Shown here: positions 29,649-64,000 of the stretch, piece by piece | How positions within the stretch are numbered: position 1 is the stretch's first letter | How the letters are laid out: each line of letters begins with the position of its first letter | NCBI GenBank assembly: GCA_944325115.1 | Contig: CALUYX010000001.1 | Span: 8,705 to 72,704 of the forward strand | Direction: 5' to 3' | Origin: Candidatus Gastranaerophilales bacterium | GTDB lineage: Bacteria; Cyanobacteriota; Vampirovibrionia; Gastranaerophilales; Gastranaerophilaceae | DNA: 64,000 nt | Program-made: the position numbers and the translations under genes | Notes under the pieces: model-generated | Told to the model about the DNA's origin: nothing | Databases searched by the model: none | What the model saw: only the letters and a program-made list of their open reading frames with translations

Positions 29649-29837
29649 ATGGCAAGGATTTTGGTTTCTATGCCCGATGATTTTCTAAAGTCTGTAGATA
29701 AACTTGCGGATAATGAAAGAAGAACACGTTCTGAACTTGTAAGGGAAGCTCTTCGAGCTTACATCAGAAAAACCAATAGTTTGAACTCCAAAAAAGCTGT
29801 TGAAAACGCAAAAACACTTGAAAATTTGCTTGATTAA
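29649..29837 (+). CDS. ribbon-helix-helix (CopG/Arc/MetJ-type) DNA-binding protein
   Basis: 62 aa. ILVSMPDDFLKSVDKLADNERRTRSELVREALRAYI fits the canonical RHH pattern of a beta-strand plus two helices. Confidence 0.75.
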   Translation: MARILVSMPDDFLKSVDKLADNERRTRSELVREALRAYIRKTNSLNSKKAVENAKTLENLLD

Positions 29838-47888: not shown

Positions 47889-50081
47889 ATGCAAATAAAG
47901 CCTTTATCCCTTGGAAATCTGTTTCAAAAACAGGGAGTTAATAAAAATAAATATCTTACATTGCCTGACTTTTCCAAATTAGAGAGAAGTCCAAAGGCTG
48001 ATATGTTTTCTTTTTGCGGCGCAGGGGCTGCTTTTTTGGATAAAGAAACAAGTACGAATAAAAAAAATACTTCCACAATAGAAGATTTTAGCTCTTACGA
48101 GCAAAGAAGGAAATATCTTGATAACAATAAAAGATATCAAGAATTGGTAAATGATAACTCTTTATACTACGACGAAGATGACATGGACCTTGCAGTTGTA
48201 GATGAAGACGGTTTTAGAAAAATAATTTCGTGTTTGGATAATGAATATTATTACAAGCTTGTAAGTCGCACCGCCTCTCCGTTTGCAGAGTTAAAAGATT
48301 CGGCGGATGTCGACAAAATGACGCTAGAGCACTTGGATAATATTTTGCAAAATGAAGATGTGCAAAAGGTCATAGATAAAAGAGGTGTTAGATATGATGA
48401 GTTAATGCAGGCTGCCCTTTTAAAAGAGGACGAATTTTCTCAATTTGATTCGTTTATTAATAATAGCAGTATCAGAAAGCTTTTTCTGACAGGCGGTATT
48501 AAAATTCAAACCCTAATCAGGTTTACAAAATTTAGTCCGTCTGCGATTAATAAATTGCACTCTATATTAAATAACAGCAGTATTCAAAAGCTGGCACAAG
48601 AGAATAAAATTAACGGTAGCGACTTTACTAATTTCCTGTATCTAAATTCTGATGAATACGAAAGGCTTGCAGGTTTATTGACTGATTTTCGAATCAGAAG
48701 AATGATAGATAACAATAAAGCCACTGCAAGTGACTTGACTGATATTGCGTATATGAGTGATGAAGAGATTGGTAACTACAATAGAATCGTAAATAACGAT
48801 AATATCTCAAAACTCATTGATAATGGGGGTATTGGTGCAGAGCATATTGTTCGTATGGCGTGTTTAGATAAGTATGATTTTAAAAATGTTGATTTTGTAA
48901 TATCAAGCGAAGTGTTTCAAAAGCTTTTGGAAAATAAAAAAATTGACCCTTTGTTTTTTGATTTTTTTGTTAATTTAAACTATGACGGTTTAGATAGATT
49001 TACAAAATTACTAAAAGATAAAAGAATTAAGATGCTTGTAAAAAACAATAAGATAAATTCTTCAAATCTTCTTAATATGATTCCTTTTAATATTAAGGGA
49101 GAAACAATAAAAAATACCCTGTATTTACAAAATAACGGTTTTGAAGAAGTTAACCCTTTAACTGTTGCACAAATATTAAAGAGCAATCCTGACTTTGATG
49201 CCAAAGATTTTTGTGCTTATGCAAAACAAGTTGATTTTAATGAGATAGAAAAAATCGTGCCGGAGGTTAAAAACTTTAACTCCACAAATAGGTTGTATTT
49301 TCTAAATTATCATTATGGCGAAAGAAAAACACATTTTGAACCTCAAGATTTTCAACTTGGTGAGGATTTTGGTGAATATTTAACCAAAAAATTCTCCAAT
49401 GCAGATGAGGTAGTTAAGCTTTATTCGATATTTCCTACAATTTCAAGAAATGTCGGAAATTTGCCTGATGGCTGGACAAAAGATATAGCAGATGAAGATG
49501 TTGATTTTGTTAAGGATGAAGTTATAAATTCTATAGACAATTTTATAAAAACAAAAAATCCTGATTCTCTTCAAGAGTCCTTGAGTGATATTTTTAATAA
49601 AAAAGTAACAGTGGAAAAAATTGGCGAAGGCTCTTTTGGTGCGGCGTATAAAATCTCTGTGCCTGATTCAAAAGATGTATGTCTTAAGATATTTCATGAA
49701 GTTTCAAAAAATCCTGACTTTATTGCAAAGCCGGGGCTAAAAAATGAGCACGGACGTTTTATTGAAGTTCAAAACGCTCTGTTTGCAAATGCGCACAGTA
49801 GAGATTATGTAAAAATGTATTTTGGGCGCGTTGGTCTTGAGGGTAGAAATGACGCTTTTATGGTCACTCAGTATTTAACAAATATGGATAAGGTTGAAGA
49901 AACTCAAATGCTTTCTGATGCTGATGATTATAGAATTATACCATTGGACGATACTACCGGTAATTATGTATACACTAACGGAAGGCTTATCTATATTGAT
50001 TTTGGTGCGCTAAAAATTGTTAATAAAAAAACCGGTGAAAACATAACAAAGGGTAAATGGGCAAGGACGGGCGCTTTTTAA
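47889..50081 (+). CDS. repeat protein (seven ~37-aa helical repeats) fused to a minimal protein-kinase-like domain
   Basis: 730 aa. The repeats span roughly 48327-49128, with consensus NNxxIxKLIxNxKIxxxDL. The C-terminal kinase motifs are IGEGSFGAAYKI (Gly loop), VCLKIF (VAIK Lys), LDDTTGN (catalytic D...N) and IDFG (DFG). The protein ends ~25 aa after the DFG. Confidence 0.75.
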   Translation: MQIKPLSLGNLFQKQGVNKNKYLTLPDFSKLERSPKADMFSFCGAGAAFLDKETSTNKKNTSTIEDFSSYEQRRKYLDNNKRYQELVNDNSLYYDEDDMDLAVVDEDGFRKIISCLDNEYYYKLVSRTASPFAELKDSADVDKMTLEHLDNILQNEDVQKVIDKRGVRYDELMQAALLKEDEFSQFDSFINNSSIRKLFLTGGIKIQTLIRFTKFSPSAINKLHSILNNSSIQKLAQENKINGSDFTNFLYLNSDEYERLAGLLTDFRIRRMIDNNKATASDLTDIAYMSDEEIGNYNRIVNNDNISKLIDNGGIGAEHIVRMACLDKYDFKNVDFVISSEVFQKLLENKKIDPLFFDFFVNLNYDGLDRFTKLLKDKRIKMLVKNNKINSSNLLNMIPFNIKGETIKNTLYLQNNGFEEVNPLTVAQILKSNPDFDAKDFCAYAKQVDFNEIEKIVPEVKNFNSTNRLYFLNYHYGERKTHFEPQDFQLGEDFGEYLTKKFSNADEVVKLYSIFPTISRNVGNLPDGWTKDIADEDVDFVKDEVINSIDNFIKTKNPDSLQESLSDIFNKKVTVEKIGEGSFGAAYKISVPDSKDVCLKIFHEVSKNPDFIAKPGLKNEHGRFIEVQNALFANAHSRDYVKMYFGRVGLEGRNDAFMVTQYLTNMDKVEETQMLSDADDYRIIPLDDTTGNYVYTNGRLIYIDFGALKIVNKKTGENITKGKWARTGAF

Positions 50082-50093: not shown

Positions 50094-50489
50094 TTGTTGA
50101 CAGGATTGAATATGAATAAAAAAGAATACAGTTTTGACGCTTTGCCTCTTGATATCAATATTGCAAAAATGCAATTTAATATTTTAAGGTATGTTGAAAA
50201 AGAAATTTTAAATGAAGAAAATTTTAAGTCGATTACTGAATCATACAAAAACAAAGATACAAGAGTCAGTATTGATGAAATTAAAATTTCTTGTAAATAT
50301 TCAGATACAAGCACGTATGAAGTGATTGTAGCAATCTGCGCTGTTTCTTCTAAGATACATTGCGAGCAAAAACTTTTTTGCGGCACAAAAGAAGAGCTAA
50401 TGAAGTATTTAAAAGATTCGGATAAACAGTTTTTCTCTAAAGTAAAAGAGCTTGCTTTAGGTGTTTCTGAACAAAGCAAGACTTTGTAG
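50094..50489 (+). CDS. hypothetical protein
   Basis: 131-aa ORF just downstream of the kinase-like gene, with an alternative ATG at 50112. Its composition is far more protein-like than the fully overlapping minus-strand ORF 50078..50497. Confidence 0.5.
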   Translation: MLTGLNMNKKEYSFDALPLDINIAKMQFNILRYVEKEILNEENFKSITESYKNKDTRVSIDEIKISCKYSDTSTYEVIVAICAVSSKIHCEQKLFCGTKEELMKYLKDSDKQFFSKVKELALGVSEQSKTL

Positions 50490-51548
50490 TTAAACAAGTA
50501 TTTCGCTGCATTTTTTTTCGTATTTTTTTATTTGCAAGAGAGAAAACTCTTCCATATTGCAATTTGAATAAAAATTCTTGTACCATTCAACAGTTGCGCT
50601 GACCGTTTGTTCAATATCAAGTACGCATTGCCAACCTAACTGAGTTTTTGCTTTTTGGGGGTTTAGCATAAGCAAAGTTGCCTCATGCAGAGAGTCTTTT
50701 TTGTTGATTTCGACCTTTCCTTGTCCCCAGTAGTTGATTGTTTTTTTTACAATGTCGCCAACACACAGTATCGAGTTTTCATTGGGACCAAAATTGTACC
50801 CTTGAGCATACTTTTGTCCGCAGGAAAAAAGTTTTTCTCCAAGTATCATATAGCCTCTTAGGGGTTCTAATACATGCTGCCAGGGTCTTGTTGCTTCAGG
50901 GTGGCGTATTTCTATTGTTTCGCCCTTGGCAAGGCTTTTTATGCAGTCGGGAATAAGCCTGTCTTGTGCCCAGTCTCCACCGCCGATTACATTTCCGGCT
51001 CGCGCTGTTGCCATTGCGTATCCGTTTTGTAAAAAAGAGCGCCTGAATGACGACGACATAATTTCTACACATCCTTTTGATGATGAGTACATGTCGTATC
51101 CGCCCATAGGGTCGTCTTCGTCGTAGCCTCTTTTAATTTCTTTATTTTCATAACACTTATCTGTTGTGATATTCACAAAAGATTTGACACTTTCGCATTC
51201 TCTTGCTGCCTGAAGTACATTTAAAGTGCCCATTACGTTTGTTTGATACGTTTCAATGGGCTGTGAGTATGAAAGCCTTACAAGGGGTTGTGCTGCAAGG
51301 TGAAAAACAATTTCCGGTTTAAAAGAGTTAAAAGCTTTTTTCAGGCTTTCAAAGTCTCTTATGTCGCCAATTTTAGAATTGCAAAATGATGAAATGTTTG
51401 ACTGATTATACAGAGATATTTCTTCCTGTTTAAGTGCATAGCCAAGTACTTCTGCTCCAAGGTATGACAACCATAGCGCGAGCCAAGAGCCCTTAAAACC
51501 TGTGTGACCTGTTATAAGTACTTTTTTATTTTTATAAAATTCAAACAC
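50490..51548 (-). CDS. rfbG: CDP-glucose 4,6-dehydratase
   Basis: VLITGHTGFKGSWLALWL is present, with an SDR YxxxK in YSSSKGCVE. The 352-aa length is typical of RfbG/DdhB. Confidence 0.88.
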   Translation of the reverse strand: MFEFYKNKKVLITGHTGFKGSWLALWLSYLGAEVLGYALKQEEISLYNQSNISSFCNSKIGDIRDFESLKKAFNSFKPEIVFHLAAQPLVRLSYSQPIETYQTNVMGTLNVLQAARECESVKSFVNITTDKCYENKEIKRGYDEDDPMGGYDMYSSSKGCVEIMSSSFRRSFLQNGYAMATARAGNVIGGGDWAQDRLIPDCIKSLAKGETIEIRHPEATRPWQHVLEPLRGYMILGEKLFSCGQKYAQGYNFGPNENSILCVGDIVKKTINYWGQGKVEINKKDSLHEATLLMLNPQKAKTQLGWQCVLDIEQTVSATVEWYKNFYSNCNMEEFSLLQIKKYEKKCSEILV

Positions 51549-52328
51549 TTAATTTCTCCATATCGCCCAAGGTGCTGAGCCTGTCATCCACATATCCGTG
51601 AGCTGCATTTTGTCTTTTAATGTATCCATCGGTCGCCAAAAGCCCTCATGTTTGTATGAATTCAGCTTATTGTCGCGCGCCAGATTTTCAAGAGGTTCTT
51701 TTTCAAACACTGTCGAACTTGTGTTTTTTATGTAATCATATACTTCAGGTTCACAAACAAAGAATCCGCCATTAACCCAAGAGTTATCCCCTTTTGGTTT
51801 TTCGCTGAATGAAGAAATTGAGCCATCGGACTCTATGTTTAGCGCGCCATATTTACCGCTTGGTTGTACGGCTGTCATGGTAACTGTTTTCTTTGATTTT
51901 TTGTGATTCTCAATCAGTTTTTTGATATCTATATCTGCAACGCCATCTCCATATGTGAGAAGGAAGGGGTGATTTTTGGTGTATGCTTTAGCTTTTGCTA
52001 TTCTGCCGCCAGTCATTGTGTCTTGTCCTGTATACAACATTGTTACTTTCCAGGGTTCAACTCTTTGTTTGTGAATTTCGACAGAATTTCTTTTCATATC
52101 GATTGTTATATCGGAGTATCGGGTGTAGTAGTTTATAAAATACTCCTTAATAATATGTGATTTGTAGCCTGTTAGGATAATAAAATCGTTAAATCCGAAG
52201 TACGAGTATATTTTCATGATGTGCCACAAAATAGGTCTCCCGCCTATTTCTACCATTGGTTTTGGTCGAAGCTCCGTTTCTTCGCTTAATCTTGTCCCCA
52301 GCCCGCCGGCCAAAATTACTACTTTCAT
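51549..52328 (-). CDS. rfbF: glucose-1-phosphate cytidylyltransferase
   Basis: The sequence MKVVILAGGLGTRLSEETELRPKPMVEIGGRPILWHIMK matches RfbF/DdhA. It abuts rfbG with no gap. Confidence 0.9.
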   Translation of the reverse strand: MKVVILAGGLGTRLSEETELRPKPMVEIGGRPILWHIMKIYSYFGFNDFIILTGYKSHIIKEYFINYYTRYSDITIDMKRNSVEIHKQRVEPWKVTMLYTGQDTMTGGRIAKAKAYTKNHPFLLTYGDGVADIDIKKLIENHKKSKKTVTMTAVQPSGKYGALNIESDGSISSFSEKPKGDNSWVNGGFFVCEPEVYDYIKNTSSTVFEKEPLENLARDNKLNSYKHEGFWRPMDTLKDKMQLTDMWMTGSAPWAIWRN

Positions 52329-52388: not shown

Positions 52389-52925
52389 ATGAAGTTTACA
52401 AAACTTGAAATTGAGGGTGCATATTTAATTGAAATTGAACCGCATAACGATAATCGCGGTTTTTTTGCGAGAGGTTTTTGTGCAAAAGAATTAAAAGAAA
52501 AAACAGGAATAGACTTTAAGGTTTGTCAGGCTAATGTTTCTTTTAATGCTAAAAAAGGTACAATTCGGGGTATGCACTATCAGATTCATCCTTATGAAGA
52601 GCAAAAAATTGTTTCTTGTGTAAAGGGTGCAATTTTTGATGTTGTGCTTGATTTAAGAAAGAATAGTCCAACATATCTTAAATGGCTCGGTTATGAACTA
52701 AGTGAGGATAACTATAAAATGCTCCTTATTCCAAGGGGATGTGCACATGGGTTTCAGTCACTAAGAGATGATACGGTGCTTAATTATAAGGTTGACCAAT
52801 ACTTCACTCCTAATGCAGATAGTGGTGTGAGGTATGATGACCCGCTTGTAAATATTGATTTTCCGATAAAAGAAAACATTGTAATTTCTGATAAAGATAA
52901 ATCGCATAAGGACTGGGTGTATTAG
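52389..52925 (+). CDS. NDP-4-keto-6-deoxyhexose 3,5-epimerase-like cupin (RfbC family)
   Basis: It has DNRGFF, GTIRGMHYQ and CAHGFQSL in RmlC-type order. The protein is 178 aa. Confidence 0.85.
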   Translation: MKFTKLEIEGAYLIEIEPHNDNRGFFARGFCAKELKEKTGIDFKVCQANVSFNAKKGTIRGMHYQIHPYEEQKIVSCVKGAIFDVVLDLRKNSPTYLKWLGYELSEDNYKMLLIPRGCAHGFQSLRDDTVLNYKVDQYFTPNADSGVRYDDPLVNIDFPIKENIVISDKDKSHKDWVY

Positions 52926-52941: not shown

Positions 52942-53943
52942 ATGGATGTGATAAAATTTTTAGAGAAAAATACGAGGTCGATAACAAGGCCTGTAAAAAA
53001 AATGTGTAAGTGGGCGTATTATGATATGGGTTTAAACGTTGCTCATTCCAGGTTTGTGAATAGTAGAATTAATAAAATTATAAAATCTAAAAACGTTAAA
53101 TATATAAAAATAAGAAATAAGGAAGATTATTATCAATTTGAAAAAGAGCAAAGCGAGCTACTTGCTTTTTCTAGAAAATATGCTCTTGATTTGAAAAACT
53201 GCTTAAAATATCCGCTAGAATATAGTGGTGTTTGTATTTCTTGTGGTAGAAAAGTTAAATTTAGTTCCGAAATGTTATATGAGTATTCGCAAGAGCCAAT
53301 GCTTTCGGAAACAATAGTATGTCCAAAATGTGGGCTTTCAAACAGGGTAAGGCAACTTTTTTATATCCTGTACAGAGAATTGCCTTTGAATAAAAAACTG
53401 AGTATTTTTGCGTTAGAGCGTGTTACTCCTTTTTACAAAAGTTTGGAGTCGAATTTTGGCTATAGGAGTAAAATTATAGCAAGCGAATTTTTAGGTGGCG
53501 ACTTAAAAAGTGGAGAAGTAGTAAATGGAATTTTGCACGAAGATGCAACTTCTTTAAGCTTTGAAAATAATAGTTTTGACGCAGTTGTTTCTAATCATGT
53601 ATACGAACATGTTGCTGATATAGATAAAACTTTAAGTGAGGCATACAGGGTCTTGAAAGTTGGTGGAAAGGTTATAGCGGGAATACCTATTGATATTAAA
53701 AAAGATAAAACTTTTGTGCGGGCAAAAATTGAAGATGGACAAATAGTATATCTTGCCGAAAAAGAGATACATGGCAATCCTTTGTCTGATAGTGGTTGTC
53801 TATGTTTTTATAATTATGGTTGGGATTTATTTGAAAAGTTTAAAAAAGCAGGCTTTAAAGATGTTTATTTATTAAATATCTTGAGTAAAGAACTTGGCAA
53901 TGTTTGTGATTATCCGGTAGCAACATTTGTGGCTGTAAAGTAG
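52942..53943 (+). CDS. class I SAM-dependent methyltransferase with N-terminal Cys4 zinc-ribbon-like insert
   Basis: CISCGRKV...CPKCG is followed by Methyltransf_11-like segments (FDAVVSNHVYEHVADIDKTLSEAYRVLKVGGKV). Confidence 0.75.
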   Translation: MDVIKFLEKNTRSITRPVKKMCKWAYYDMGLNVAHSRFVNSRINKIIKSKNVKYIKIRNKEDYYQFEKEQSELLAFSRKYALDLKNCLKYPLEYSGVCISCGRKVKFSSEMLYEYSQEPMLSETIVCPKCGLSNRVRQLFYILYRELPLNKKLSIFALERVTPFYKSLESNFGYRSKIIASEFLGGDLKSGEVVNGILHEDATSLSFENNSFDAVVSNHVYEHVADIDKTLSEAYRVLKVGGKVIAGIPIDIKKDKTFVRAKIEDGQIVYLAEKEIHGNPLSDSGCLCFYNYGWDLFEKFKKAGFKDVYLLNILSKELGNVCDYPVATFVAVK

Positions 53944-53948: not shown

Positions 53949-54821
53949 ATGAAAAGAGTTATTATTACAGGTTCTACGGGCTTAATAGGCAAAGAGGCAA
54001 TTTTGCCCCTTAAAGATGCCGGATTTGAAGTCTTTGAACTCAGGCATGAAGTTTGTGATTTATTTGACAGCAGTTCTCTTGAAGAATTTTTTGCTAAAAT
54101 TAAGCCTCAGTATTTACTGCATTTTGCTTGGATAACGGGCGGCGATTATTTGACAAATCCGATAAACGAAAAATTTGTTACGTCAAGTATGGAAATGCTG
54201 AAGATTTTTAAAAAATACGGTGGCACAAGAGCTGTTTTTGCAGGAACTTGCTTTGAATACAAATTTAAAAACGAGCCTATAAAAGAAAATGACGAGCTAA
54301 ATCCTGCTACTTTGTATGCAATATCAAAAGATAAATTAAGAAAGCTTGCCCATGAGTTTTGCGCTCAAAACGGTATAAACTTTGGTTGGGGCAGGATATT
54401 TTATGTCTTTGGTCAAAATGAAAAGACAGGCAGACTAACCTCGACAATCGTAAATAATTTGCGTCAAAACAAGCCTGTTACAATAAACTCAGGCTCATTG
54501 CTCAGGGATTATATGTACACAAAAGATATTGCAAATGCATTTGTAAAGTTTCTCTGTACAGATGTAGATGGTTGTGTTAACATTGCAACAGGAAAGGCGA
54601 TTAGTTTAGAGGACTTTGCGCTAACATTTGCAAATTTAAAGGGAAAAGAAGAGTTGGTTATTGTTAAAAATGAAGTTGGAAATCAACCGCCTTTGATAGT
54701 TGCAGATATTGCAAGATTAAAAGATGAAGTGAAATTTGAAAACAAATATACTGTTGAGCAAGCTGTAAGAGAGATATTGAACGGGGAGAGTATTACCAAT
54801 ACCAAAGTTTTTTGTAGATAA
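53949..54821 (+). CDS. NAD(P)-dependent sugar epimerase/reductase (extended SDR)
   Basis: It has VIITGSTGLIGKE (the GxxGxxG region) and YAISKDKL (YxxxK). The protein is 290 aa. Confidence 0.85.
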   Translation: MKRVIITGSTGLIGKEAILPLKDAGFEVFELRHEVCDLFDSSSLEEFFAKIKPQYLLHFAWITGGDYLTNPINEKFVTSSMEMLKIFKKYGGTRAVFAGTCFEYKFKNEPIKENDELNPATLYAISKDKLRKLAHEFCAQNGINFGWGRIFYVFGQNEKTGRLTSTIVNNLRQNKPVTINSGSLLRDYMYTKDIANAFVKFLCTDVDGCVNIATGKAISLEDFALTFANLKGKEELVIVKNEVGNQPPLIVADIARLKDEVKFENKYTVEQAVREILNGESITNTKVFCR

Positions 54822-54981
54822 TTCTAAGGAAAAACAAGGAACTAAAATTTGCGGCAGCAAGGTTGAAATAATTTCTTTTGAAGATTATCTAAAATTAGAA
54901 AATCGTCCGGTTGTTATACTTTCTACATGTGCTAATTATTTAGAGCAAATAAAGACTTTGTTGGAGTTACACAATGTTTAG
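54781..54981 (+). pseudogene. start-less relic of the N-terminal domain of an FkbM-type methyltransferase
   Basis: This 66-codon open frame has no ATG/GTG/TTG near its 5' end. Its translation, TGRVLPIPKFFVDNSKEKQGTKICGSKVEIISFEDYLKLENRPVVILSTCANYLEQIKTLLELHNV, aligns with residues ~55-115 of the downstream paralog (HSILPVAFLDKNKTGTKLSVPIFHPKEYKNKDSLVVIAIVLNKSDRIELIKYLNSLGYNNI). It overlaps the SDR gene's 3' end and is out of frame with the 54974 ORF. Confidence 0.65.
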
Positions 54982-55753
54982 CTATTTTGTAAATAGTTTT
55001 ATATCTTTTGACGCACATTCAATGACAGATACCTCTAATGTTTTGCTTCAAAAGTTCTCAAATTATGTTGATTTGTTTAATTCTCTAGAAGATACTGCTT
55101 CAAAGGAAGTGTTAGATAGTCTGTTAAGGTATCGTTTAAATTTTGATGAAAATGAGTTAAAAAATGTGTACAACCCGTCTTGTATTCAATATTTTGAGTC
55201 GGATATATATCAAATTAGCACAAAGGATTCAATAGTTGACTGTGGTGCATTTGATGGTGATACTTTGGCTACCGTTTTGCGTCTGACTAATGAAAAACTA
55301 AGAAATTATTATGCTTTTGAACCAGATAAGGAAAATTACAATGAACTTAAAAATAAAGCCATAAAGTATCAGCTGCCAGGAAGTATATATCAACTAGGAT
55401 GTTGGAGCGCTAAAACACAATTGACCTTTGCGGATTCAGGTACCACTTCTTCTCAAATTACGGAAAGTGGTAGTATAAAAGTAGATGTCACTTCTTTAGA
55501 TATTGAGCTAAAAGATAAAGATGTCACTTTTATCAAAATGGACATTGAGGGTGCAGAAATAGAAGCGCTTAAAGGTGCAAAAAATATTATTCAGAACCAA
55601 AAGCCGGTGCTTGCAATATGTGTGTATCATAAATTTAATGACATTTTTGATATTCCTGAGCTTGTAAAAAGTTTTGGAGTTGATTACAAATATTATTTAA
55701 GACACTATACTAAAGATGTCAGAGAAACAGTGCTTTATGCCGTGCCTGTTTAG
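54974..55753 (+). CDS. FkbM-family methyltransferase (catalytic domain only)
   Basis: Motifs seen are IVDCGAFDGDT, YAFEPD and FIKMDIEGAEIEALKGA. It is paralogous to the C-terminal 250 aa of the next gene. Confidence 0.8.
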   Translation: MFSYFVNSFISFDAHSMTDTSNVLLQKFSNYVDLFNSLEDTASKEVLDSLLRYRLNFDENELKNVYNPSCIQYFESDIYQISTKDSIVDCGAFDGDTLATVLRLTNEKLRNYYAFEPDKENYNELKNKAIKYQLPGSIYQLGCWSAKTQLTFADSGTTSSQITESGSIKVDVTSLDIELKDKDVTFIKMDIEGAEIEALKGAKNIIQNQKPVLAICVYHKFNDIFDIPELVKSFGVDYKYYLRHYTKDVRETVLYAVPV

Positions 55754-55787: not shown

Positions 55788-56873
55788 TTGATTTTTAAAT
55801 ATCTTGCATATATACTTACAAATGTTATGTTTACAAATTTATCTTGTAAAACACTGGATGATTATCTGGTAAGTTTGCGGAACTCGGATATACTGTTATA
55901 CGGTGCAGGGGCTTTTGGTGGTGAGCTTTGTGACGTGTTAAAAAAGCACTCGATTTTACCTGTAGCCTTTTTAGATAAGAATAAAACCGGCACTAAACTC
56001 TCTGTTCCGATTTTTCATCCAAAGGAATACAAAAATAAAGATTCGCTTGTTGTTATAGCAATTGTGCTTAACAAGTCAGATAGAATTGAACTTATTAAAT
56101 ACTTAAATTCGCTTGGTTATAATAATATCCTTGATGGACAGATAATTAGGGCGCATTATGTACAATTTGAATCAGGCAAAACATATTGCCCCAATGAAGC
56201 GAGCTTGCCGCTGGCGTATCTTGCTGATGAAGAAAGTGTTATAACATATAAAACAAATGTCCTGGCACATTTAAATCGTAATTATGACAACTGTGTACAA
56301 ACTGATGAGAAATTTCAATATTTTGTAAATATAGAAGGTAATAATCGTTTTTCAAATTTTGTAGATTGTGGCGCATATATTGGTGATACATACCTTGAGG
56401 CTAAAAAGGCCGGGGTTGTTATTGATAATTACTATGCTTTTGAACCAATGCTTAATAATTTTGAAAAATTAAGGGAAAATCTGAAAGATATTAACTGTTA
56501 TGCTTATAACTATGCAGTTTCAGATAGCAAAAAGACCTTGTGTTTTCAAGATATGCTTGGCTCTTCGCATTCATGTGAAAACGGCGGCGTGCTTGTGAGT
56601 GCAATAAATTTAGACAACATATTGTCCGATAAGAAGATAGATTTTATTAAAATGGATATCGAGGGAGAGGAGCTCGGTGCTCTTATTGGGGCACAGAAAA
56701 TAATAAAAACCCAGAAGCCTAACCTTGCAATATGTCTGTATCATTACATCAATCATTTTTGGGAGATACCAAATTTGATACATAGTTGGAACTTGGGTTA
56801 TAAACTCTATGTAAGAACTCACTCGGGTGCTTGTATGGAGACTGTACTGTATGCAATTAAGGAGGAAAAATGA
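55788..56873 (+). CDS. FkbM-family methyltransferase with N-terminal Rossmann-like domain
   Basis: The N-domain has LLYGAGAFGGELCDVL. The catalytic part has FVDCGAYIGDT, YAFEP and FIKMDIEGEELGAL. The start is uncertain: TTG at 55788 or ATG at 55827. Confidence 0.8.
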   Translation: MIFKYLAYILTNVMFTNLSCKTLDDYLVSLRNSDILLYGAGAFGGELCDVLKKHSILPVAFLDKNKTGTKLSVPIFHPKEYKNKDSLVVIAIVLNKSDRIELIKYLNSLGYNNILDGQIIRAHYVQFESGKTYCPNEASLPLAYLADEESVITYKTNVLAHLNRNYDNCVQTDEKFQYFVNIEGNNRFSNFVDCGAYIGDTYLEAKKAGVVIDNYYAFEPMLNNFEKLRENLKDINCYAYNYAVSDSKKTLCFQDMLGSSHSCENGGVLVSAINLDNILSDKKIDFIKMDIEGEELGALIGAQKIIKTQKPNLAICLYHYINHFWEIPNLIHSWNLGYKLYVRTHSGACMETVLYAIKEEK

Positions 56874-57865
56874 GTACATCACAGTGCACAAAAAGGGTGG
56901 AGCTTGCAAAACAACTCCCGTTGAAGACTCCCTTTTCGGTTCACATTTTTCCTATTTATATGTGCAATTTTAAATGCAAATATTGCCTGCACTCAATGAG
57001 TACTTCTGAGCTTGCAAAAAAAGGTTTTAAGAAGTCTGTTATGGACTTTTCAATATATAAAAAAGCCATAGATGGCATAAAAGAATATGATGACAAACTA
57101 AAAGCTCTTATTTTTGCAGGGCATGGTGAGCCTCTTTTGCATAAAGACATTTGTAAAATGGTTAAATATGCAAAAGATGCCAATATTGCACAACGCGTTG
57201 AGATAGTTACCAATGCTTCATTGTTGGATAAAAAAATGTCTGACGGGCTTATTGAAGCAGGAGTTGATAGACTAAAAATATCAATTCAGGGTACCAATGC
57301 AAAAAAATATAAAGAAGTATCTGATTATGATATGGACTATAGTGAATTTTTGTCAAATCTTAAATATTTTAAAGAAAACAAAAAACATACCGAAGTTTAC
57401 ATAAAAATTATAGATATCGCACTTGACGGCAAAGAGGATGAGATGCTTTTTAAAAACTTATTTGAACCCGTTGCCGATTATGTTGATATTGAATATGCCA
57501 TACCTTTTATAAATGAGCTCAATGAAGACGTTTATGGTGATAAAGAATTTGATAAATGCAAACAGGGTAACTTGCAAAAGTCGAAAATATGTTCAATGCC
57601 ATTTTACATGCAGGTTGTAGCTCCTAATGGCGATATTTTACCCTGTTGTTCTACTGACGTTCCGATTGTTCTTGGAAATATAGATGACACTTCAATTAAG
57701 GAAATTTGGAATAATAAAACAACAAAAGGCTTTCTAAAGACCATGTTAACAGACAAAAATAAAAATGCAGTATGTGCAAATTGTTGTGTGCCCGAATTTG
57801 GTCTGCAGGAAGGCGATTATTTGGATGAGTATAAAGATGAATTATTGAAAAAATACGAGGAATAA
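56870..57865 (+). CDS. radical SAM / SPASM-domain protein (paralog 1)
   Basis: It has the CNFKCKYC (CxxxCxxC) cluster and a GHGEPLL GGE-like motif. The C-terminal auxiliary-cluster region is CSMPFYMQVVAPNGDILPCC...CANCC. ATGA overlaps the upstream gene. Confidence 0.85.
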   Translation: MSTSQCTKRVELAKQLPLKTPFSVHIFPIYMCNFKCKYCLHSMSTSELAKKGFKKSVMDFSIYKKAIDGIKEYDDKLKALIFAGHGEPLLHKDICKMVKYAKDANIAQRVEIVTNASLLDKKMSDGLIEAGVDRLKISIQGTNAKKYKEVSDYDMDYSEFLSNLKYFKENKKHTEVYIKIIDIALDGKEDEMLFKNLFEPVADYVDIEYAIPFINELNEDVYGDKEFDKCKQGNLQKSKICSMPFYMQVVAPNGDILPCCSTDVPIVLGNIDDTSIKEIWNNKTTKGFLKTMLTDKNKNAVCANCCVPEFGLQEGDYLDEYKDELLKKYEE

Positions 57866-58888
57866 ATGGAAGCAAAAGTTAAGCCAGGTTATGATGATAA
57901 AAGAACAATTTTAAAAGATGTTGTACCTCTAGATACACCATACACTCTTTTTATTTCGCCATCTCAGTTGTGTAATTTCAGATGTCATTTTTGTGCACAA
58001 TCATTGAGTAATGAAGAAAAAAAACAAAAGGGACTCATACAGATTAATCAGGATATGGATGTTTTCTTGAAAATCGTAGAGCAGTCAAAGAAGTTTCCAA
58101 ACAAGTTTAAGCGCATACTTTTAACCGGTCTTGGCGAGCCGCTTATGAATAAAAATATTGCCAAGATGGTAGAAATGGTTAAAGAAGCAGAGATTTCAGA
58201 GAAAATTGAAATATTTACAAATGCTGCGCTTTTAAATCACAAATTAAGTGATGACTTGATTAACGCAGGACTTACAAAATTAAGAATTTCTACACAGGGT
58301 ACGGATGCTGCTATGTATAAAAAACACAGTGGCGTAGATATTGATTTTGATAAGTTTGTAAGTGAAATTAAATATTTTTATGAAAAAAGCAGAGGAAAAT
58401 GCCAAGTATACATAAAAATAATTGAGGAAGAATTAAGGGATGCAAATGATAGAGAAAAATTCTTTGATATTTTTGGCAATATATGTGACGAAATATATGT
58501 TGAGAATCTGACACAAGCTCAACCTGCTATGGGTGATTATGAAAACAAGGTAGAGCATACAAGAACTTTTTACGGTGAAAAAGCAAAGGTAAGAGAAGTT
58601 TGCCCTTACATTTTTTATTCTTTACAGACTGACTCTGAAGGAAATTGTTTCCCTTGTCCGCCTTTAAGTCTTCCTTTGAGTTTTAGTATTGGAAATATCA
58701 ATGATACTCCAATTACAGAAATATGGAACGGTAAAAAACACAAAGATATAATGATTTCGCACTTGAATGGTAATAAGTGTGATTTGTGTAAAAAGTGTAC
58801 AAATTATCTGTGTTTTACTCCTGATGAAGATAACTTGGACATGCATAAAGAAGAAATTTTAGAGAGGTTGAATTTATGTCTAAAATAG
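57866..58888 (+). CDS. radical SAM / SPASM-domain protein (paralog 2)
   Basis: Motifs seen are CNFRCHFC, GLGEPLM and CPYIFYSLQTDSEGNCFPC...CDLCKKC. It is clearly paralogous to the flanking genes. Confidence 0.85.
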   Translation: MEAKVKPGYDDKRTILKDVVPLDTPYTLFISPSQLCNFRCHFCAQSLSNEEKKQKGLIQINQDMDVFLKIVEQSKKFPNKFKRILLTGLGEPLMNKNIAKMVEMVKEAEISEKIEIFTNAALLNHKLSDDLINAGLTKLRISTQGTDAAMYKKHSGVDIDFDKFVSEIKYFYEKSRGKCQVYIKIIEEELRDANDREKFFDIFGNICDEIYVENLTQAQPAMGDYENKVEHTRTFYGEKAKVREVCPYIFYSLQTDSEGNCFPCPPLSLPLSFSIGNINDTPITEIWNGKKHKDIMISHLNGNKCDLCKKCTNYLCFTPDEDNLDMHKEEILERLNLCLK

Positions 58889-59907
58889 AGCCTATATCGG
58901 GTCATAATGACAGGGTGGAACTAAAGAAAGTTTTGCCTTTAATGACTCCTTTTACATTAAATGTTTTCCCGATTAATTCTTGCAACTTTAAATGCAACTT
59001 TTGTGCTCAAAGTTTGGGTGTTCAGGGGTTAAAAGAAGAATACGGTTATGACGTTGCAGAAAAAATGTCACTTGCAACTTTTGAAAATATTGTCAGGCAG
59101 TCAATGGAGTTTGACGAGCAATACAAGCTCCTTTCTTTTATGGGACATGGAGAGCCGCTTTTGAATAAAGATTTGCCAAAGATGATTAAAATGGCAAGTG
59201 ATGCTAAAATAGCTCAAAGGATTGAAATAATTACAAATGGTTCTCTGCTTACGCCTGAATTATCTGATGCGCTTATTGAATCAGGTATAACAAATGTGAG
59301 ATTATCTCTTGAGGGATTGAGTGCAAAAGTATACAAAGAAGTAAGTAATGTTGATATTGATTTTGATAATTTTTTATCAAATCTTGAGTATTTTCATACA
59401 AAGGGTGAAAAATACGGTGCAAAATTATTTGTAAAAGTTATTGACTGCTCTCTGAAACAAGGTGAACAGGTGAAGTTTTACAAAATGTTTGATAAAATTT
59501 CATCCAGAATGTATGTTGAAAAGGTTAAGCCTGTTTATTCGGGCGTTGAGGCTACATGTGGAATTAAAGATTTGACTACGGACAGATACGGTAATACACA
59601 TGAAAAAAGGTTGGTTTGCCCCATGGCATTTTTCTCTTTAGCGGTTTGGCCAAACGGTGACGTTGCTCCATGTGATGCTATATATAAACCATGTAATCTT
59701 GGCAATGTAAATAGCGGTAGCTTAAGGGAAATGTTTTGCGGCGAGAGGGTAAACAACTTTAGGATTTCACTGTTGCAGAACAAAAAAGAACAAATGTTTG
59801 GTTGCAAAAAGTGCTGTGCTCCTGATGATGTATCACATGAGTTGGATGAATTAGACAGTGACAGGACTAATCTTCTTGGTAAATACGGTGCTTTTTTAAA
59901 TGCTTGA
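58876..59907 (+). CDS. radical SAM / SPASM-domain protein (paralog 3)
   Basis: Motifs seen are CNFKCNFC, GHGEPLL and CPMAFFSLAVWPNGDVAPC...CKKCC. It overlaps paralog 2 by 13 nt. Confidence 0.85.
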   Translation: MSKIEPISGHNDRVELKKVLPLMTPFTLNVFPINSCNFKCNFCAQSLGVQGLKEEYGYDVAEKMSLATFENIVRQSMEFDEQYKLLSFMGHGEPLLNKDLPKMIKMASDAKIAQRIEIITNGSLLTPELSDALIESGITNVRLSLEGLSAKVYKEVSNVDIDFDNFLSNLEYFHTKGEKYGAKLFVKVIDCSLKQGEQVKFYKMFDKISSRMYVEKVKPVYSGVEATCGIKDLTTDRYGNTHEKRLVCPMAFFSLAVWPNGDVAPCDAIYKPCNLGNVNSGSLREMFCGERVNNFRISLLQNKKEQMFGCKKCCAPDDVSHELDELDSDRTNLLGKYGAFLNA

Positions 59908-61135
59908 TAAAACAAATAAAAAGATACTGCATATAACGCCACATTTAGGTGGTGGCGTGGGACATGTTATACTTGGTTGGGTTTGCACTGATAAGGCGTA
60001 TAATCATGAGATTGTAACCTTGGATTATGCAAATGAGAAAGCAAAAAAGATTTGTGCTGAAAATTCAATCAATTTGTATTCATGTGTTTCGCACTTAAAC
60101 ATACTTGAACTAATACCCAAATTTGATGTTATTATTTTGCATTTTTGGAATCACCCGCTTTTGTATGACTTTATTGTAAAAAATCAACTGCCGCCTTGCA
60201 GGCTGATAATATATTCTCATATATCAGGGTTATATGCGCCAAATTTAATAACAAAAAAAATTCTCAGGTATCCTGAAAAATTTATTTATACAACTAGAAT
60301 AAGTAAAGAAATTGATTCATCTAACGATGTTATTTTATCGACCGCAGGTATAGAACATGTTAAGAACTTAAATCATAAAACTCAGGAGCAATACAGTCTT
60401 GGTTATATAGGAACTGTAGATTATGCAAAAATGCATCCTGATTACATAGGAACTATGGGTAAGATAAAAAATGCCAAATTTTTAATTGTTGGCGGTGGAA
60501 ATGAAAAAGAAATTGCAAAATCTGCAGATGAGCGTTTTGAGTTTTACGGTCAGGTAGAAGATGTACGTCCTTATTTGTCAAAAATGGATGTATTTGCTTA
60601 TCTTTTGAACCCTACGCATTTTGGTACTGCAGAGCAAGTGTTACAAGAGGCTATGGCCGCAGGGGTTGTTCCTGTTGTATTGAATAATAAATGCGAAACT
60701 ACGCTTGTAGAGCATGGGTTGACGGGACTTGTTGCAAAAAATCTTGATGAATATGTTTCTTTTGTAGAGCTTTTAAGAAAAGATGTTAGCTTGAGGAATA
60801 AACTTTCAGTAAACGCAAAAAAATACGCCAAAGATAATTTTTCGCTAGAAACTTTTGTGAAAAAATGGAGAGAGGTATTAAATAAAGTTTTGTTAATGAA
60901 AAAAAAGTCTAAAAAGTGGTCAGTGCGACAAGGTGCTGATAATCTTAAATCTTATGACATTTTTTTGGAGAGTCTTGGTGATTATGCGTCAGATTTTGTG
61001 TTAAAATCAGATAAAGAATTAAAAGAATTATTTAAGGAGCCTAATTGGCAGTCTGAAAATAAGGGTACACCAAAACAATACTACAGATTCCTTGGTGGTA
61101 GAGGATTAGAAAGATTGGTAAAGTTGTATGAATAA
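59900..61135 (+). CDS. glycosyltransferase, GT4-like (GT-B fold)
   Basis: The N-terminus has ILHITPHLGGGVG. The C-terminal EX7E-type region is GTAEQVLQEAMAAGVVPVV. Confidence 0.78.
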   Translation: MLDKTNKKILHITPHLGGGVGHVILGWVCTDKAYNHEIVTLDYANEKAKKICAENSINLYSCVSHLNILELIPKFDVIILHFWNHPLLYDFIVKNQLPPCRLIIYSHISGLYAPNLITKKILRYPEKFIYTTRISKEIDSSNDVILSTAGIEHVKNLNHKTQEQYSLGYIGTVDYAKMHPDYIGTMGKIKNAKFLIVGGGNEKEIAKSADERFEFYGQVEDVRPYLSKMDVFAYLLNPTHFGTAEQVLQEAMAAGVVPVVLNNKCETTLVEHGLTGLVAKNLDEYVSFVELLRKDVSLRNKLSVNAKKYAKDNFSLETFVKKWREVLNKVLLMKKKSKKWSVRQGADNLKSYDIFLESLGDYASDFVLKSDKELKELFKEPNWQSENKGTPKQYYRFLGGRGLERLVKLYE

Positions 61136-62102
61136 TGAAAATCTGCTAATTACAGTAGGTTTAACTACATATAATCGTCTTGAAATGCTAAAAAAAGCGC
61201 TTACGAGTTTAAGGAATCAAACGTATAAAAATATTGAAATTATAATTGCTGATAACCACTCAACGGATGGAACCGAGGAATATTGCAAAGAATGTGCAAT
61301 AAAAGATTCAAGGATAAGGTATTACAGACATGATGAAAATATTGGTCTGTATAAAAACGGACAGTTTTTACTTGGACAGATAAGAACAAAGTATGCACTA
61401 CTTGTTTGTGATGACGACTGGGTTAGTGAAAATTTTGTTGAAGAAGCTGTTAAGGTTATAAACAAAAAACGGGATTTTACTTCAATATCTTCGGCAGTAT
61501 ATTTATATGATGAAAATTACAATATTATGGACAAAGGTATTGCTGATGGTATTTTATCTAATTCGTATACAAAAAGGATGTGCGCTTATGCAAATACTAT
61601 AAATAGGCTTAAAATTACATCATTTTTTGTTGATGTTGACAGTTGCAAAAAGTCTTTAGGTTTTTCAAAAGGTTGTTATTGTGGCGACCAGCTATATTCT
61701 TTAAGATTGTTGTTTTTGGGAAAAATGCCAATATTAAAAAACGCGATATATCATAAAGTTCATAACGGATGCACAAAAGACCTTGAAACTTTGACCAAAA
61801 GTTTTAATCTCGAAGGATTTACAAATGAAAATTATCCATATAAGCTTGCGCAGACTCAGGCAAATTTTATTATGGAGGATGAGTTTTTCAAAAGCAGATT
61901 GAGTGAAAGAAAAAGAAAAAAACTTGCAAGGGCTGTATATAAGAGCGTAATAAAGGCACATACGCCAAAGACAAGCTTTAAAGATGTGTATGGTTTTGTT
62001 CGTGTTCGTCCGTTCTTTTTGTTCTATAGACAATTTTACGATTTGGTATACAGTTTTCTTGGCTTGGATATTAATTACAAATTTGAGGAGTACTTTAGCT
62101 GA
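61128..62102 (+). CDS. glycosyltransferase family 2
   Basis: It has ITVGLTTYNR, IIIADNHSTDGT and a DDD (DxD) motif in VCDDDW. Confidence 0.85.
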   Translation: MNNENLLITVGLTTYNRLEMLKKALTSLRNQTYKNIEIIIADNHSTDGTEEYCKECAIKDSRIRYYRHDENIGLYKNGQFLLGQIRTKYALLVCDDDWVSENFVEEAVKVINKKRDFTSISSAVYLYDENYNIMDKGIADGILSNSYTKRMCAYANTINRLKITSFFVDVDSCKKSLGFSKGCYCGDQLYSLRLLFLGKMPILKNAIYHKVHNGCTKDLETLTKSFNLEGFTNENYPYKLAQTQANFIMEDEFFKSRLSERKRKKLARAVYKSVIKAHTPKTSFKDVYGFVRVRPFFLFYRQFYDLVYSFLGLDINYKFEEYFS

Positions 62103-63097
62103 TGAATATACCTATTTTCCTTGCGAGTGATGAAAATTATGCGCCGTATTTGTGCGCAACAATGTTTTCGATTTTAATGCACACAACTTCGCAAATTGAC
62201 TTCTATGTTATGTCTAATAAAATAAGTGATGATTCAAAAGCCAAAATAAAAGAGTCTTTGAGTTGTTATAATAATTTTTCAATTGAATATATAGACATTT
62301 CAAATTTTGATTTATCAAGGTTTCCAATTAAAAGACACTATTCTGTTAATACTTTTGCAAGATATTTTATACCTGATATAAAGCCTGATTTAAAAAAAGT
62401 TTTATACCTGGATTCAGATATTATTATGAGGGATGATATAGTTAATCTTTGGAATTACGACTTGAATAGAAAGCTAATTGCAGCTGTTAGCGAAAAATTT
62501 AACAGAACAAACGGTATTTATCTGAAAGAAAAAATTGATTCCAATTATTCGGATATTGAAAAATATTTTAACGCAGGTGTTCTTGTCCTTGATGTAGAAG
62601 GTATTAAAAAAGAAAACCTGATGCAGCAATGCATTGAAAAAACTATAGAATTATCCGACAAGCTTTCTTGTCCTGATCAGGATGTAATGAATATTGTTTT
62701 TGAAAATAAGGTTCAGTACTTACCTGACGAATTTAATTTTATGCCTGATTTGCTTGAAGCCTCGTATTTTCCGTTTTATGGGGAAGTGTATTCTAATAAA
62801 ATTAAAGACAATGCAAAAATTATTCATTATGTCGTAGGAAAGCCTTGGTTTAATCTTTCTTGTGTTAGTGATTATTTTTGGGAAGTTGCAAAAAAGACCA
62901 AATTTTATGAATCCATAAAAAATAAGCCCGATGAGCCTGAAAAAAAACGAATTTTCGAGCTTGATGAAGAAATAAAAGGTATAAAAAAAGTTTTTTATAA
63001 GAGAATAAAACAAAGAAGTCTGAAGAAAAAAAGACACGTTTATATTTTATTCTGGTCTTTTGTAATTAAAACTCCGTGGAAATATATAAAAAGCTAG
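62102..63097 (+). CDS. glycosyltransferase family 8 (RfaJ/LgtC-like retaining hexosyltransferase)
   Basis: Motifs seen are IPIFLASDENYAPYL, LYLDSDIIM (DxD) and NAGVLVLD. It shares a 1-nt overlap (TGATG) with the upstream gene. Confidence 0.85.
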   Translation: MNIPIFLASDENYAPYLCATMFSILMHTTSQIDFYVMSNKISDDSKAKIKESLSCYNNFSIEYIDISNFDLSRFPIKRHYSVNTFARYFIPDIKPDLKKVLYLDSDIIMRDDIVNLWNYDLNRKLIAAVSEKFNRTNGIYLKEKIDSNYSDIEKYFNAGVLVLDVEGIKKENLMQQCIEKTIELSDKLSCPDQDVMNIVFENKVQYLPDEFNFMPDLLEASYFPFYGEVYSNKIKDNAKIIHYVVGKPWFNLSCVSDYFWEVAKKTKFYESIKNKPDEPEKKRIFELDEEIKGIKKVFYKRIKQRSLKKKRHVYILFWSFVIKTPWKYIKS

Positions 63098-63153: not shown

Positions 63154-63966
63154 TTAAGTCCATTCTTCGATTTTTTGCTCTGTTATTCTGTGTGCTATAT
63201 CAACTGTTCTTTTTTTGACGTAGCAATATTTGCAAAATGGTACGGGTTTAGCTAAAAAATACATTATCTCTTGCATATTCCTTGCTTTGTATATATCAAT
63301 GTAGTCATTTGGGGTTATTTGTATATTCTGGTTGAATTTTTTATTAAAGTGTCTTATGTATGGTATAACGCAACAGGTATACAACTTACCCTTGTGCAAT
63401 TGAACGCACTCATTTGAAAAAGGACAAGTGAGGAAATTTTCTTGAGCATTTTGTGCGCCCTCTAGGTCTAAGGGGAGTTTGTAAAGAGTTTTCTCTTCTT
63501 TTTCGCTGTTTGAATAAAATTCAAGCTTTATTCCAAAATGTTTGCACTTTTTTCTTATTTCTTCCCAGTTTACCTTTATTGGATATTTTGTTGGGGATAT
63601 TACTATTGAATGTTTTGCTACTTCGTTGTAAAAAGCGTCATCTTGCTGTTCAAGTAAAATGGCGTTTGTTATGAGAATAATTTTTGAATTTTCAAAATAT
63701 TTTCTCGCTATTTGAAAGAAATCTTTGCATTGTGGGTGGAGCAAAGGTTCACCGCCCATTAGGTGTATTTCGTTTATTTCTCCAAAAGTGAGCTCTTTTA
63801 GTCTTTTTAAATCGCTTTCAAATTCTTCTATCGAAAGATATTCTTCCTCTGCTATACTTGAAAAATGTGCACAGTGGGCGCATTTTAGGTTGCAATGTTC
63901 GCAAAGATGAATTTCTAAATAATTTATATTTGGTCTTACCGACATTGAATAAAATTTCTGAAACAA
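63154..63966 (-). CDS. radical SAM protein with Cys-rich C-terminal (SPASM/twitch-like) region (diverged fourth copy)
   Basis: Motifs seen are CEHCNLKCAHC, MGGEPLL and CPFSNECVQLHKGKLYTCC...FCKYC. The reading frame stays open to the right window edge. The most likely start is the ATG at 63945; the track uses the TTG at 63966. Confidence 0.75.
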   Translation of the reverse strand: MFQKFYSMSVRPNINYLEIHLCEHCNLKCAHCAHFSSIAEEEYLSIEEFESDLKRLKELTFGEINEIHLMGGEPLLHPQCKDFFQIARKYFENSKIILITNAILLEQQDDAFYNEVAKHSIVISPTKYPIKVNWEEIRKKCKHFGIKLEFYSNSEKEEKTLYKLPLDLEGAQNAQENFLTCPFSNECVQLHKGKLYTCCVIPYIRHFNKKFNQNIQITPNDYIDIYKARNMQEIMYFLAKPVPFCKYCYVKKRTVDIAHRITEQKIEEWT

Positions 63967-64000
63967 AAGACTTGTTCTTTTGTTTACATATGTTTCTATA

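Follow-up and report, generated by a model that had tools for sequence, protein, structure and literature searches.

What would three consecutive radical S-adenosylmethionine (SAM) enzymes do inside an operon of sugar-nucleotide genes? This question is raised by a 64-kb stretch of DNA from a Candidatus Gastranaerophilales bacterium (contig CALUYX010000001.1), referred to below as the window, meaning the whole 64,000 nucleotides analyzed. The three genes, here named A, B and C, lie on the + strand at 56870-57865, 57866-58888 and 58876-59907 and encode proteins of 331, 340 and 343 aa. A first-pass annotation, made from the sequence alone, had described them as tandem, coupled radical SAM paralogs at 56870-59907, placed between two FkbM methyltransferases and glycosyltransferases in a cytidine diphosphate (CDP)-hexose operon. 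The former description was confirmed by the open reading frames (ORFs), their overlaps, the Pfam matches and the quoted motifs, and the latter by the Pfam and NCBIfam matches of the surrounding genes. Gene A overlaps the second FkbM gene (FkbM2) by 4 nt, A and B abut, and B and C overlap by 13 nt; further on, overlaps of 8 nt, 8 nt and 1 nt join C to a GT1 glycosyltransferase gene, GT1 to GT2 and GT2 to GT8, respectively. Many independent contigs carry identical genes or orthologs of them, and A, B and C are authentic genes. The locus is best explained as one version of a conserved and widespread cassette, whose enzymes would make and tailor a CDP-activated 6-deoxyhexose that goes into a surface glycan.

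Domains, cysteines and structural relatives of A, B and C

All three proteins matched the Pfam families Radical_SAM (PF04055; 53-70 bits against a cutoff of 29.5) and SPASM (39-51 bits against a cutoff of 21.5). They carry the cluster motifs CNFKCKYC (A), CNFRCHFC (B) and CNFKCNFC (C) as well as GHGEPL, GLGEPL and GHGEPL, respectively, and they have in common an N-terminal motif, R-x2-L-x4-P-x3-P, just ahead of the cluster motif. In alignments of the orthologs of each protein (n = 29 for A, n = 15 for B and n = 20 for C), CX3CX2C was invariant and, beyond it, exactly four C-terminal cysteines were invariant in each orthogroup. The radical SAM cluster cysteines are residues 32, 36 and 39 of A and residues 36, 40 and 43 of both B and C, and the auxiliary cysteines are residues 241, 259, 302 and 305 (A), 246, 264, 308 and 311 (B) and 248, 266, 310 and 313 (C). 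Additional conserved cysteines are group-specific: C260 of A (29/29), C314 of C (19/20), and C179 and C207 of B (13/15).

The three proteins had initially been labeled as SPASM enzymes. A SPASM domain contains seven or eight conserved C-terminal cysteines and two auxiliary [4Fe-4S] clusters, whereas a twitch domain is a shortened SPASM-like domain with three or four conserved cysteines and one cluster (PMC9477430). The founding twitch enzyme is BtrN, the 2-deoxy-scyllo-inosamine dehydrogenase of butirosin biosynthesis, whose auxiliary cluster has four cysteine ligands (PMC9012708). In the phmmer alignment, the four auxiliary cysteines of A coincided with the four cysteines of BtrN residues 166-238. 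Because of the four conserved cysteines and, in A, their alignment with the auxiliary cysteines of BtrN, A, B and C are classed as BtrN-type twitch enzymes, with sites for one predicted auxiliary cluster each. The cysteine count (four invariant, not seven or eight) rules out a full SPASM domain, despite the Pfam SPASM score above threshold, and the initial label was abandoned. The accompanying C-terminal pattern, C-x2-[PI]-x9-12-G-x3-PC, fits A and B; in C the [PI] position is occupied by an alanine.

Among the curated NCBIfam families, none reached its cutoff for A-C, which thus fall in no characterized subgroup. The best model was N_Twi_rSAM (90 bits against 170), followed by W_rSAM_matur, a tungsten-cofactor maturase family (89 bits against 380), the others being further below. 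Pfam returned no RRE- or PqqD-like leader-binding domain in A, B or C, and there is no room for an RRE domain since CX3CX2C starts at residue 32-36. The B12-binding domain (PF02310) had no match in A, B, C or the product of gene D, a further radical SAM gene at the end of the locus.

Searched against the PDB with phmmer, A matched BtrN best (1.6e-12), then viperin, DesII, MoaA and BlsE; the best match of B was also BtrN (1.8e-8), and C matched MoaA, then BtrN and BlsE. An AlphaFold (AF2) model of A, built from 40 orthologs, had a mean pLDDT of 93.7, and a Foldseek search of the PDB with this model gave BtrN (3e-14), DesII (1e-12) and BlsE (1e-11) as the nearest structures. The peptide-modifying SPASM enzymes SuiB, SkfB, EpeE and anSME ranked below these three. 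All three nearest structures act on sugars or cyclitols; because the identity of A to the top Foldseek matches is only 15-19%, this is a resemblance of kind and not membership.

The likeness to BtrN, best sequence match of A and B and best structural match of A, extends over the core and the twitch domain, including the four cysteines aligned with the invariant ones of A. The substrate of BtrN is a small molecule, cyclitol or sugar-like, in which the enzyme attacks a carbinol C-H (PMC9012708). BtrN differs from our proteins in sequence (about 19% identity; TM-score normalized to the query, 0.56), in length (about 250 aa against 331-343 aa) and in context, since BtrN belongs to aminoglycoside biosynthesis whereas A-C belong to a CDP-hexose glycan operon with two to five distinct paralogs per locus; R-x2-L-x4-P-x3-P is a feature of A-C. 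DesII and BlsE, second and third structural neighbors of A at 16-18% identity, act on TDP-4-amino-4,6-dideoxyglucose and cytosylglucuronic acid, respectively, and DesII is a precedent for a radical SAM enzyme acting directly on a nucleotide-activated 6-deoxyhexose. However, DesII is about 490 aa long, a twitch domain was not detected in it here, and the reactions of the two enzymes are deamination (DesII) and decarboxylation/dehydration (BlsE). NeoN, HygY and SpeY, from aminoglycoside pathways, are single-auxiliary-cluster enzymes that take a hydrogen atom from a sugar carbinol carbon and resolve the radical by hydrogen return from a cysteine or by oxidation. SpeY (structure 7wzv) was among the structural matches of A, covering only about 170 residues, and a close relationship in sequence was not detectable; the substrates of NeoN, HygY and SpeY are pseudo-oligosaccharide antibiotics, not nucleotide sugars.

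Orthology, the conserved cassette and its variants

A is 35% identical to B and 39% identical to C, within a cross-paralog range of 31-39%. Orthologs of A (40-70% identity) were present in every related locus; those of B shared 50-67%, with an additional B' group at 34-39%, and those of C 43-66%. A phmmer search of 1.84 billion representatives gave 464 clusters at E <= 1e-30, and hundreds of homologs of A, at 50-76% identity, were found in metagenomes, Magnetovirga frankeli, Synergistales and Clostridiales. A scan of genome contigs with protein A alone gave only distant relatives (23-33% identity), and no cassette genes lay near the three nearest of these (L004-L006). In a neighbor-joining tree, we observed separate clades for A, B/B' and C, an accessory clade E and an expansion of Brachyspira copies. 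Since each protein has its own orthologs at 40-70% identity against 31-39% between paralogs, and since the tree separates them, the triplication is, on sequence evidence, ancient, and A, B and C are distinct, non-redundant orthogroups whose order has been retained across phyla. Orthology and tree thus rule out a recent tandem duplication or redundant copies. The initial suggestion that triplication means sequential or iterative steps does not hold if read as recent duplication: the orthogroups are old and distinct, B is absent from several loci, and the set is non-iterative.

We then compared the neighborhoods ORF by ORF with the window proteins and counted co-occurrence in the 14 loci that span 9 kb or more. 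The cassette genes follow a consensus order, rfbF-rfbG-RmlC-like-SDR-FkbM-A-(B)-C-GT1, where SDR stands for short-chain dehydrogenase/reductase; the window holds all these elements in this order, which is also retained in Magnetovirga frankeli and in some 20 loci from metagenomes. A and C were present in all 14 loci, FkbM in 13, the RmlC-like gene and GT1 in 12 each, B or B' in 11, the SDR gene in 10, rfbF in eight and rfbG in seven, several loci being cut in the case of rfbF and rfbG. The trio thus does keep company with rfbF/rfbG and FkbM genes, a point that the first-pass annotation had proposed to check.

An ortholog of FkbM2 lies immediately 5' of A in most loci, and GT1 follows C in most loci. 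In the window, FkbM2 (55788-56873, +) matches PF05050 and TIGR01444 and has an N-terminal Rossmann-like domain with a weak PglD_N/NeuD match. Its start is ambiguous: the longest ORF begins at a TTG at 55788 (361 aa), while gene callers on identical contigs place the start at about 55827 (348 aa). The GT1-family glycosyltransferase dedicated to the cassette (59900-61135, +) matches Pfam Glycos_transf_1. Two fusion proteins join a twitch radical SAM enzyme to one of these partners, P0301 (775 aa) to GT1 and P0393 (585 aa) to FkbM, and because of these fusions the radical enzymes appear functionally tied to the methyltransferase and the transferase. Overall, the genetic locking of A-C to FkbM upstream and to the dedicated GT1 downstream is strongly supported.

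The cassette also varies. B is missing in four loci (L022, L025, L026 and L030), in which a B12-binding radical SAM gene stands between FkbM and A, and B is hence dispensable; many other loci likewise have B12-radical SAM genes among those of the cassette. L022, L026 and L030 also encode a genuine TcaB9/MycC3-type sugar 3-C-methyltransferase. In two loci (L014 and L020), rfbF, the RmlC-like gene, B', A, C and a B12-radical SAM gene were present, with no rfbG and no SDR gene within 10 kb. In some loci an accessory pair recurs (L015:4256-5608, L029:4176-5501 and L042:618-1928): a radical SAM protein of about 450 aa, whose N-terminal domain is a TcaB9-type Methyltransf_14 (29 bits against 23.5), and a member of the fifth twitch clade, E. 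Genes of the protein-glycosylation type, encoding tetratricopeptide repeat (TPR)-GT41 proteins, or the flagellar genes FliT and MotAB adjoin some metagenome loci, and an Azospirillum plasmid carries rfbC-TPR-twitch radical SAM-GT41; such neighbors are a hint that some of the hosts glycosylate proteins, in the manner of flagellin.

A tblastn search of plasmids located the cassette family on plasmids of Brachyspira hyodysenteriae. On pBHWA1 (NC_012226.1, L048), rfbF, the RmlC-like gene, the SDR gene and GT1 were 53%, 52%, 44% and 45% identical to those of the window, respectively, and five tandem twitch radical SAM genes, 33-37% identical to the window family, were accompanied by one further radical SAM gene; rfbG was not adjacent. 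By contrast, pBHZ375 (NZ_CP046931.1, L055), with the order rfbF-rfbG-radical SAM-rfbC-SDR-GT, has a single twitch paralog, so that copy number varies within the species, in what looks like strain-level glycan variation. The Brachyspira twitch copies form their own clade in the tree and are not orthologs of A, B or C, and no intact FkbM gene was found on the Brachyspira plasmid blocks; the pBHWA1 block is a cassette of the same type as that of the window. The presence of the radical SAM/GT/SDR/rfbC block on the plasmid pBHWA1, of about 36 kb, correlates with virulence in pigs, which is a correlation only (PMC4267127).

Sugar-acting twitch radical SAM enzymes in general are an already known kind. 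As far as could be found, no description exists of a family that is linked to CDP-hexose operons for surface glycans and occurs as sets of distinct paralogs. No literature on radical SAM enzymes acting on CDP-sugars was found in a search of full-text literature that left most subscription journals outside, and a recent characterization is possible.

A proposed pathway and its alternatives

The genes for CDP-4-keto-6-deoxyglucose recognized initially were all confirmed. On the - strand, divergent from the remaining glycan genes on the + strand, lie rfbG, encoding CDP-glucose 4,6-dehydratase (50490-51548; TIGR02622, 476 bits against a cutoff of 278; orthologs at 38-50% identity in related loci), and an rfbF-type glucose-1-phosphate cytidylyltransferase gene (51549-52328; Pfam NTP_transferase; 53-63% identity to related-locus genes), whose 53%-identical Brachyspira ortholog carries the annotation rfbF. 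On the + strand follow an RmlC-type 3,5-epimerase of a 4-keto-6-deoxy nucleotide sugar (52389-52925; TIGR01221, 175.9 bits against a cutoff of 155.75; Pfam dTDP_sugar_isom, E = 3e-61) and an SDR, probably the C4 ketoreductase (53949-54821; Pfam Epimerase and RmlD_sub_bind), with PDB relatives including GDP-6-deoxy-4-hexulose reductase, GDP-fucose synthase and RmlD. That these four enzymes constitute the set for a CDP-6-deoxy-L-hexose is strongly supported. The same set in Campylobacter jejuni HS:41, namely cytidylyltransferase, CDP-glucose 4,6-dehydratase, 3,5-epimerase and C4 reductase, leads to CDP-6-deoxy-L-altrose or CDP-D-fucose (PMC12369002). The last enzyme of the HS:41 pathway, by contrast, is an FADH2-dependent pyranose-furanose mutase, and neither radical SAM enzymes nor FkbM proteins belong to it (PMC12369002).

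We consider it reasonably probable that A, B and C would act in sequence on the CDP-6-deoxyhexose, each abstracting a hydrogen atom at its own position, before the dedicated GT1 transfers the sugar. For each of the three proteins, there is strong support for a SAM-cleaving [4Fe-4S] site and for a cysteine quartet that would bind one predicted auxiliary cluster. Each enzyme would reductively cleave SAM to a 5'-deoxyadenosyl radical, which would take a hydrogen atom from the CDP-sugar, at a carbinol carbon that differs between the enzymes. The alpha-hydroxyalkyl radical so formed could receive a hydrogen atom on the opposite face (epimerization), pass an electron to the auxiliary cluster to give a ketone, or lose the vicinal hydroxyl group (dehydration or deoxygenation). 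There are precedents for epimerization in NeoN and HygY, for oxidation in BtrN and SpeY, and for dehydration or deoxygenation in BlsE and AprD4. The product would then be O-methylated by the FkbM enzymes and the class I methyltransferase, the FkbM step by analogy with family members known to O-methylate sugars, and the finished rare sugar would be transferred by GT1 and the glycan extended by GT2 and GT8.

Because of the extra invariant cysteines C260 (A) and C314 (C), A and C are better candidates than B for cysteine-dependent epimerases. The Methyltransf_14 domain of the accessory radical SAM protein and the weak PglD_N likeness of the FkbM2 N-terminus give hints of tailoring at the nucleotide-sugar level: PglD_N is a UDP-sugar-binding domain, and in TcaB9 Methyltransf_14 helps to hold the nucleoside diphosphate (NDP)-sugar.

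Several points weigh against the proposed pathway. Substrate and reaction type are drawn only from context and from distant homology (15-19% identity to the Foldseek PDB matches), the extra conserved cysteines adjoin cluster ligands rather than occupy a site known to point toward the substrate, and the GT1-radical SAM fusion is just as compatible with a reaction that follows glycosyl transfer. In addition, L014 and L020 combine rfbF and the RmlC-like gene with neither rfbG nor SDR within 10 kb, and pBHWA1 has no adjacent rfbG. Because of these rfbG-less loci, the starting sugar may differ or a radical SAM enzyme may supply the keto group; one paralog may thus provide the keto group needed by the RmlC-type epimerase in loci without rfbG or SDR.

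Besides that fusion (P0301), the adjacency and translational coupling of C and GT1, as well as the TPR-GT41 genes or FliT and MotAB beside some loci, would suit a scheme in which A-C act after glycosyl transfer, on the 6-deoxyhexose of a lipid-, lipooligosaccharide- or protein-linked glycan. We regard this as rather unlikely, since the radical SAM genes are placed between the nucleotide-sugar genes and the GT gene, accessory cassette enzymes have domains resembling NDP-sugar-binding modules, and the nearest structural relatives use small soluble substrates. A different role is suggested by what the locus lacks. As the first-pass annotation had stated, the E1/E3 (DdhC/DdhD) pair is absent: no aminotransferase-like or ferredoxin-reductase-like family match was found among the operon proteins. 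All three enzymes, or one of them in concert with the SDR, might then be an anaerobic substitute for E1/E3, working as a radical 1,2-diol dehydratase toward a 3,6- or 2,6-dideoxyhexose; BlsE, of the diol-dehydratase type, is among the nearest structures, and the host is an anaerobe, as judged from HydF. The single SDR for the reductions required, and the two to five paralogs, which exceed the need of a deoxygenation, make this substitution quite improbable, and for all members it is a sequence-level proposal.

The initial suggestion of unusual sugar chemistry stands as the best inference, except for C-methylation by A-C themselves, which is unlikely because they have no cobalamin domain and separate B12-radical SAM and TcaB9-like genes in sister loci cover that role. 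A related idea is that the twitch enzymes and the methyltransferases together perform radical methyl chemistry, on an FkbM-installed O-methyl group or by priming a carbon, to give branched or bridged sugars. It would agree with the position of FkbM directly upstream of A in most loci, with the FkbM-radical SAM fusion, with the B12-radical SAM genes that many loci have in among A and C, and with the TcaB9-like 3-C-methyltransferases of L022, L026 and L030, but Brachyspira plasmids carry one to five twitch enzymes and no intact FkbM, and twitch enzymes are not known to perform such methyl chemistry; we judge it very unlikely. Finally, since A-C match Pfam SPASM and many SPASM enzymes are peptide maturases, we considered a system for peptides made by ribosomal synthesis and modified post-translationally (RiPPs), or an anSME-like protein-maturation system, merely lying beside the glycan locus. 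No precursor-peptide-like ORF had been seen at first, and we likewise found none in the operon, whose gaps do not exceed 153 bp, none just downstream of the window (gene D, a GT2 gene and six proteins without Pfam match), and no conserved small ORF across 20 related loci. Moreover, there is no room for an RRE/PqqD-like domain, only four auxiliary cysteines are present, every RiPP-maturase NCBIfam model scored far below its cutoff, and the synteny with sugar genes is tight, with fusions to GT1 and FkbM. The RiPP explanation was therefore rejected on the precursor, RRE, synteny and fusion evidence, and its probability is close to nil.

Returning to sequential tailoring of the CDP-sugar, a bolder version is a radical SAM "assembly line", in which two to five position-specific twitch enzymes, often with interleaved B12-radical SAM methylases, would carry out consecutive C-H functionalizations on one CDP-6-deoxyhexose, with at least one step new to sugar radical SAM enzymes (a C-C or C-O bridge, or carbocyclization). 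We hold this version to be speculative and on the whole unlikely; if it is true, anaerobes would make a class of surface sugar that has not been described, and the virulence-linked glycan of the Brachyspira plasmid would belong to it. Sugar-acting radical SAM enzymes have so far been known almost only from antibiotic pathways, and a CDP-sugar-dedicated family in sets of two to five non-redundant paralogs would extend radical carbohydrate chemistry into the primary surface-glycan biosynthesis of anaerobes and probably reveal rare or new monosaccharides. It also offers a testable biochemical hypothesis for the B. hyodysenteriae plasmid block, correlated with virulence since 2014, for which the strain-variable copy number (one against five) suggests that these enzymes generate antigenic glycan diversity.

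Gene D and other features of the window

A fourth, diverged copy of the trio had been placed at 63154-63966 in the first-pass annotation, and neither its bounds nor its kinship held. Gene D occupies 63154-64000 on the - strand, its frame is open to base 64000, and the ORF at 63154-63966 represents no more than the portion inside the window of a gene that identical contigs call at 304 aa and that is complete at L001:8622-9536. Its product matches Radical_SAM and not SPASM, hhalign aligned it with the A profile over no more than 79 columns of the radical SAM core, and its best PDB match was the twitch dehydrogenase SpeY (3e-10). By eye, it shows the pattern C-x16-CC ... CxxC, and D may also be a twitch enzyme. 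D was present in 0/14 long related loci. Orthologs of D, sharing 45-53% identity with it, are frequent in Campylobacter, Helicobacter and Brachyspira, and the two inspected (from Campylobacter and Brachyspira) lie among unrelated housekeeping genes, in non-glycan surroundings. Taken together, the core-only alignment, the affinity to SpeY, the missing co-occurrence and the contexts of the orthologs rule out D as a fourth A/B/C paralog and place it outside the conserved cassette. The D family itself is large, uncharacterized and SpeY-like, also occurs in Treponema, and often stands alone among housekeeping genes.

The remaining genes of the glycan locus are all on the + strand. FkbM-family methyltransferase 1 (54974-55753) scores above the cutoffs of both Pfam PF05050 and TIGR01444. 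The class I SAM methyltransferase at 52942-53943 (Pfam Methyltransf_11, E = 2e-14) has two CxxC pairs, zinc-ribbon-like, in its N-terminal half; it is accessory and outside the conserved core, with a counterpart only in L033. Its identification as a TcaB9-type 3-C-methyltransferase is unsupported, and in L022 a TcaB9 homolog fills the same position. The GT2 glycosyltransferase (61128-62102; Pfam Glycos_transf_2) is specific to this locus and not conserved with the cassette, as is the GT8 glycosyltransferase (62102-63097; Pfam Glyco_transf_8, E = 3e-50), found in 1/14 related loci. No export or polymerase genes were found within the window. Directly upstream of the glycan locus lie a gene for a 730-aa protein without significant Pfam domain (47889-50081, +) and then a 131-aa ORF without Pfam match (50094-50489). 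On the same contig, downstream of the window (L049:13052-20786), six consecutive genes encode proteins of 273-506 aa with no Pfam match except a faint LysM; they may be glycan targets or export components.

The rest of the window is ordinary chromosome, encoding LeuRS, RF, ThyX, MiaB and PGI. Because an RND pump and an outer-membrane factor are encoded in the window, the host appears to be diderm, and because HydF is encoded, an anaerobe. Among named homologs of MiaB, the nearest (about 70% identity) come from Candidatus Gastranaerophilales, and the host is probably a melainabacterium of the gut. A scan of the window gave 49 promoter-like sites against 58 expected from shuffled controls, hence no excess, and 17 terminator-like sites against 7.2 expected, which were weak, none clearly marking an operon end. 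An OLD-like protein with a TOPRIM domain (29834-30871, -) adjoins a 477-aa protein without Pfam match (30918-32351, +), and the pair may be a small defense module. A 288-aa protein (37507-38373, -) consists nearly entirely of HEAT/PBS-lyase-like repeats, a notable feature in a probable non-photosynthetic relative of the cyanobacteria.

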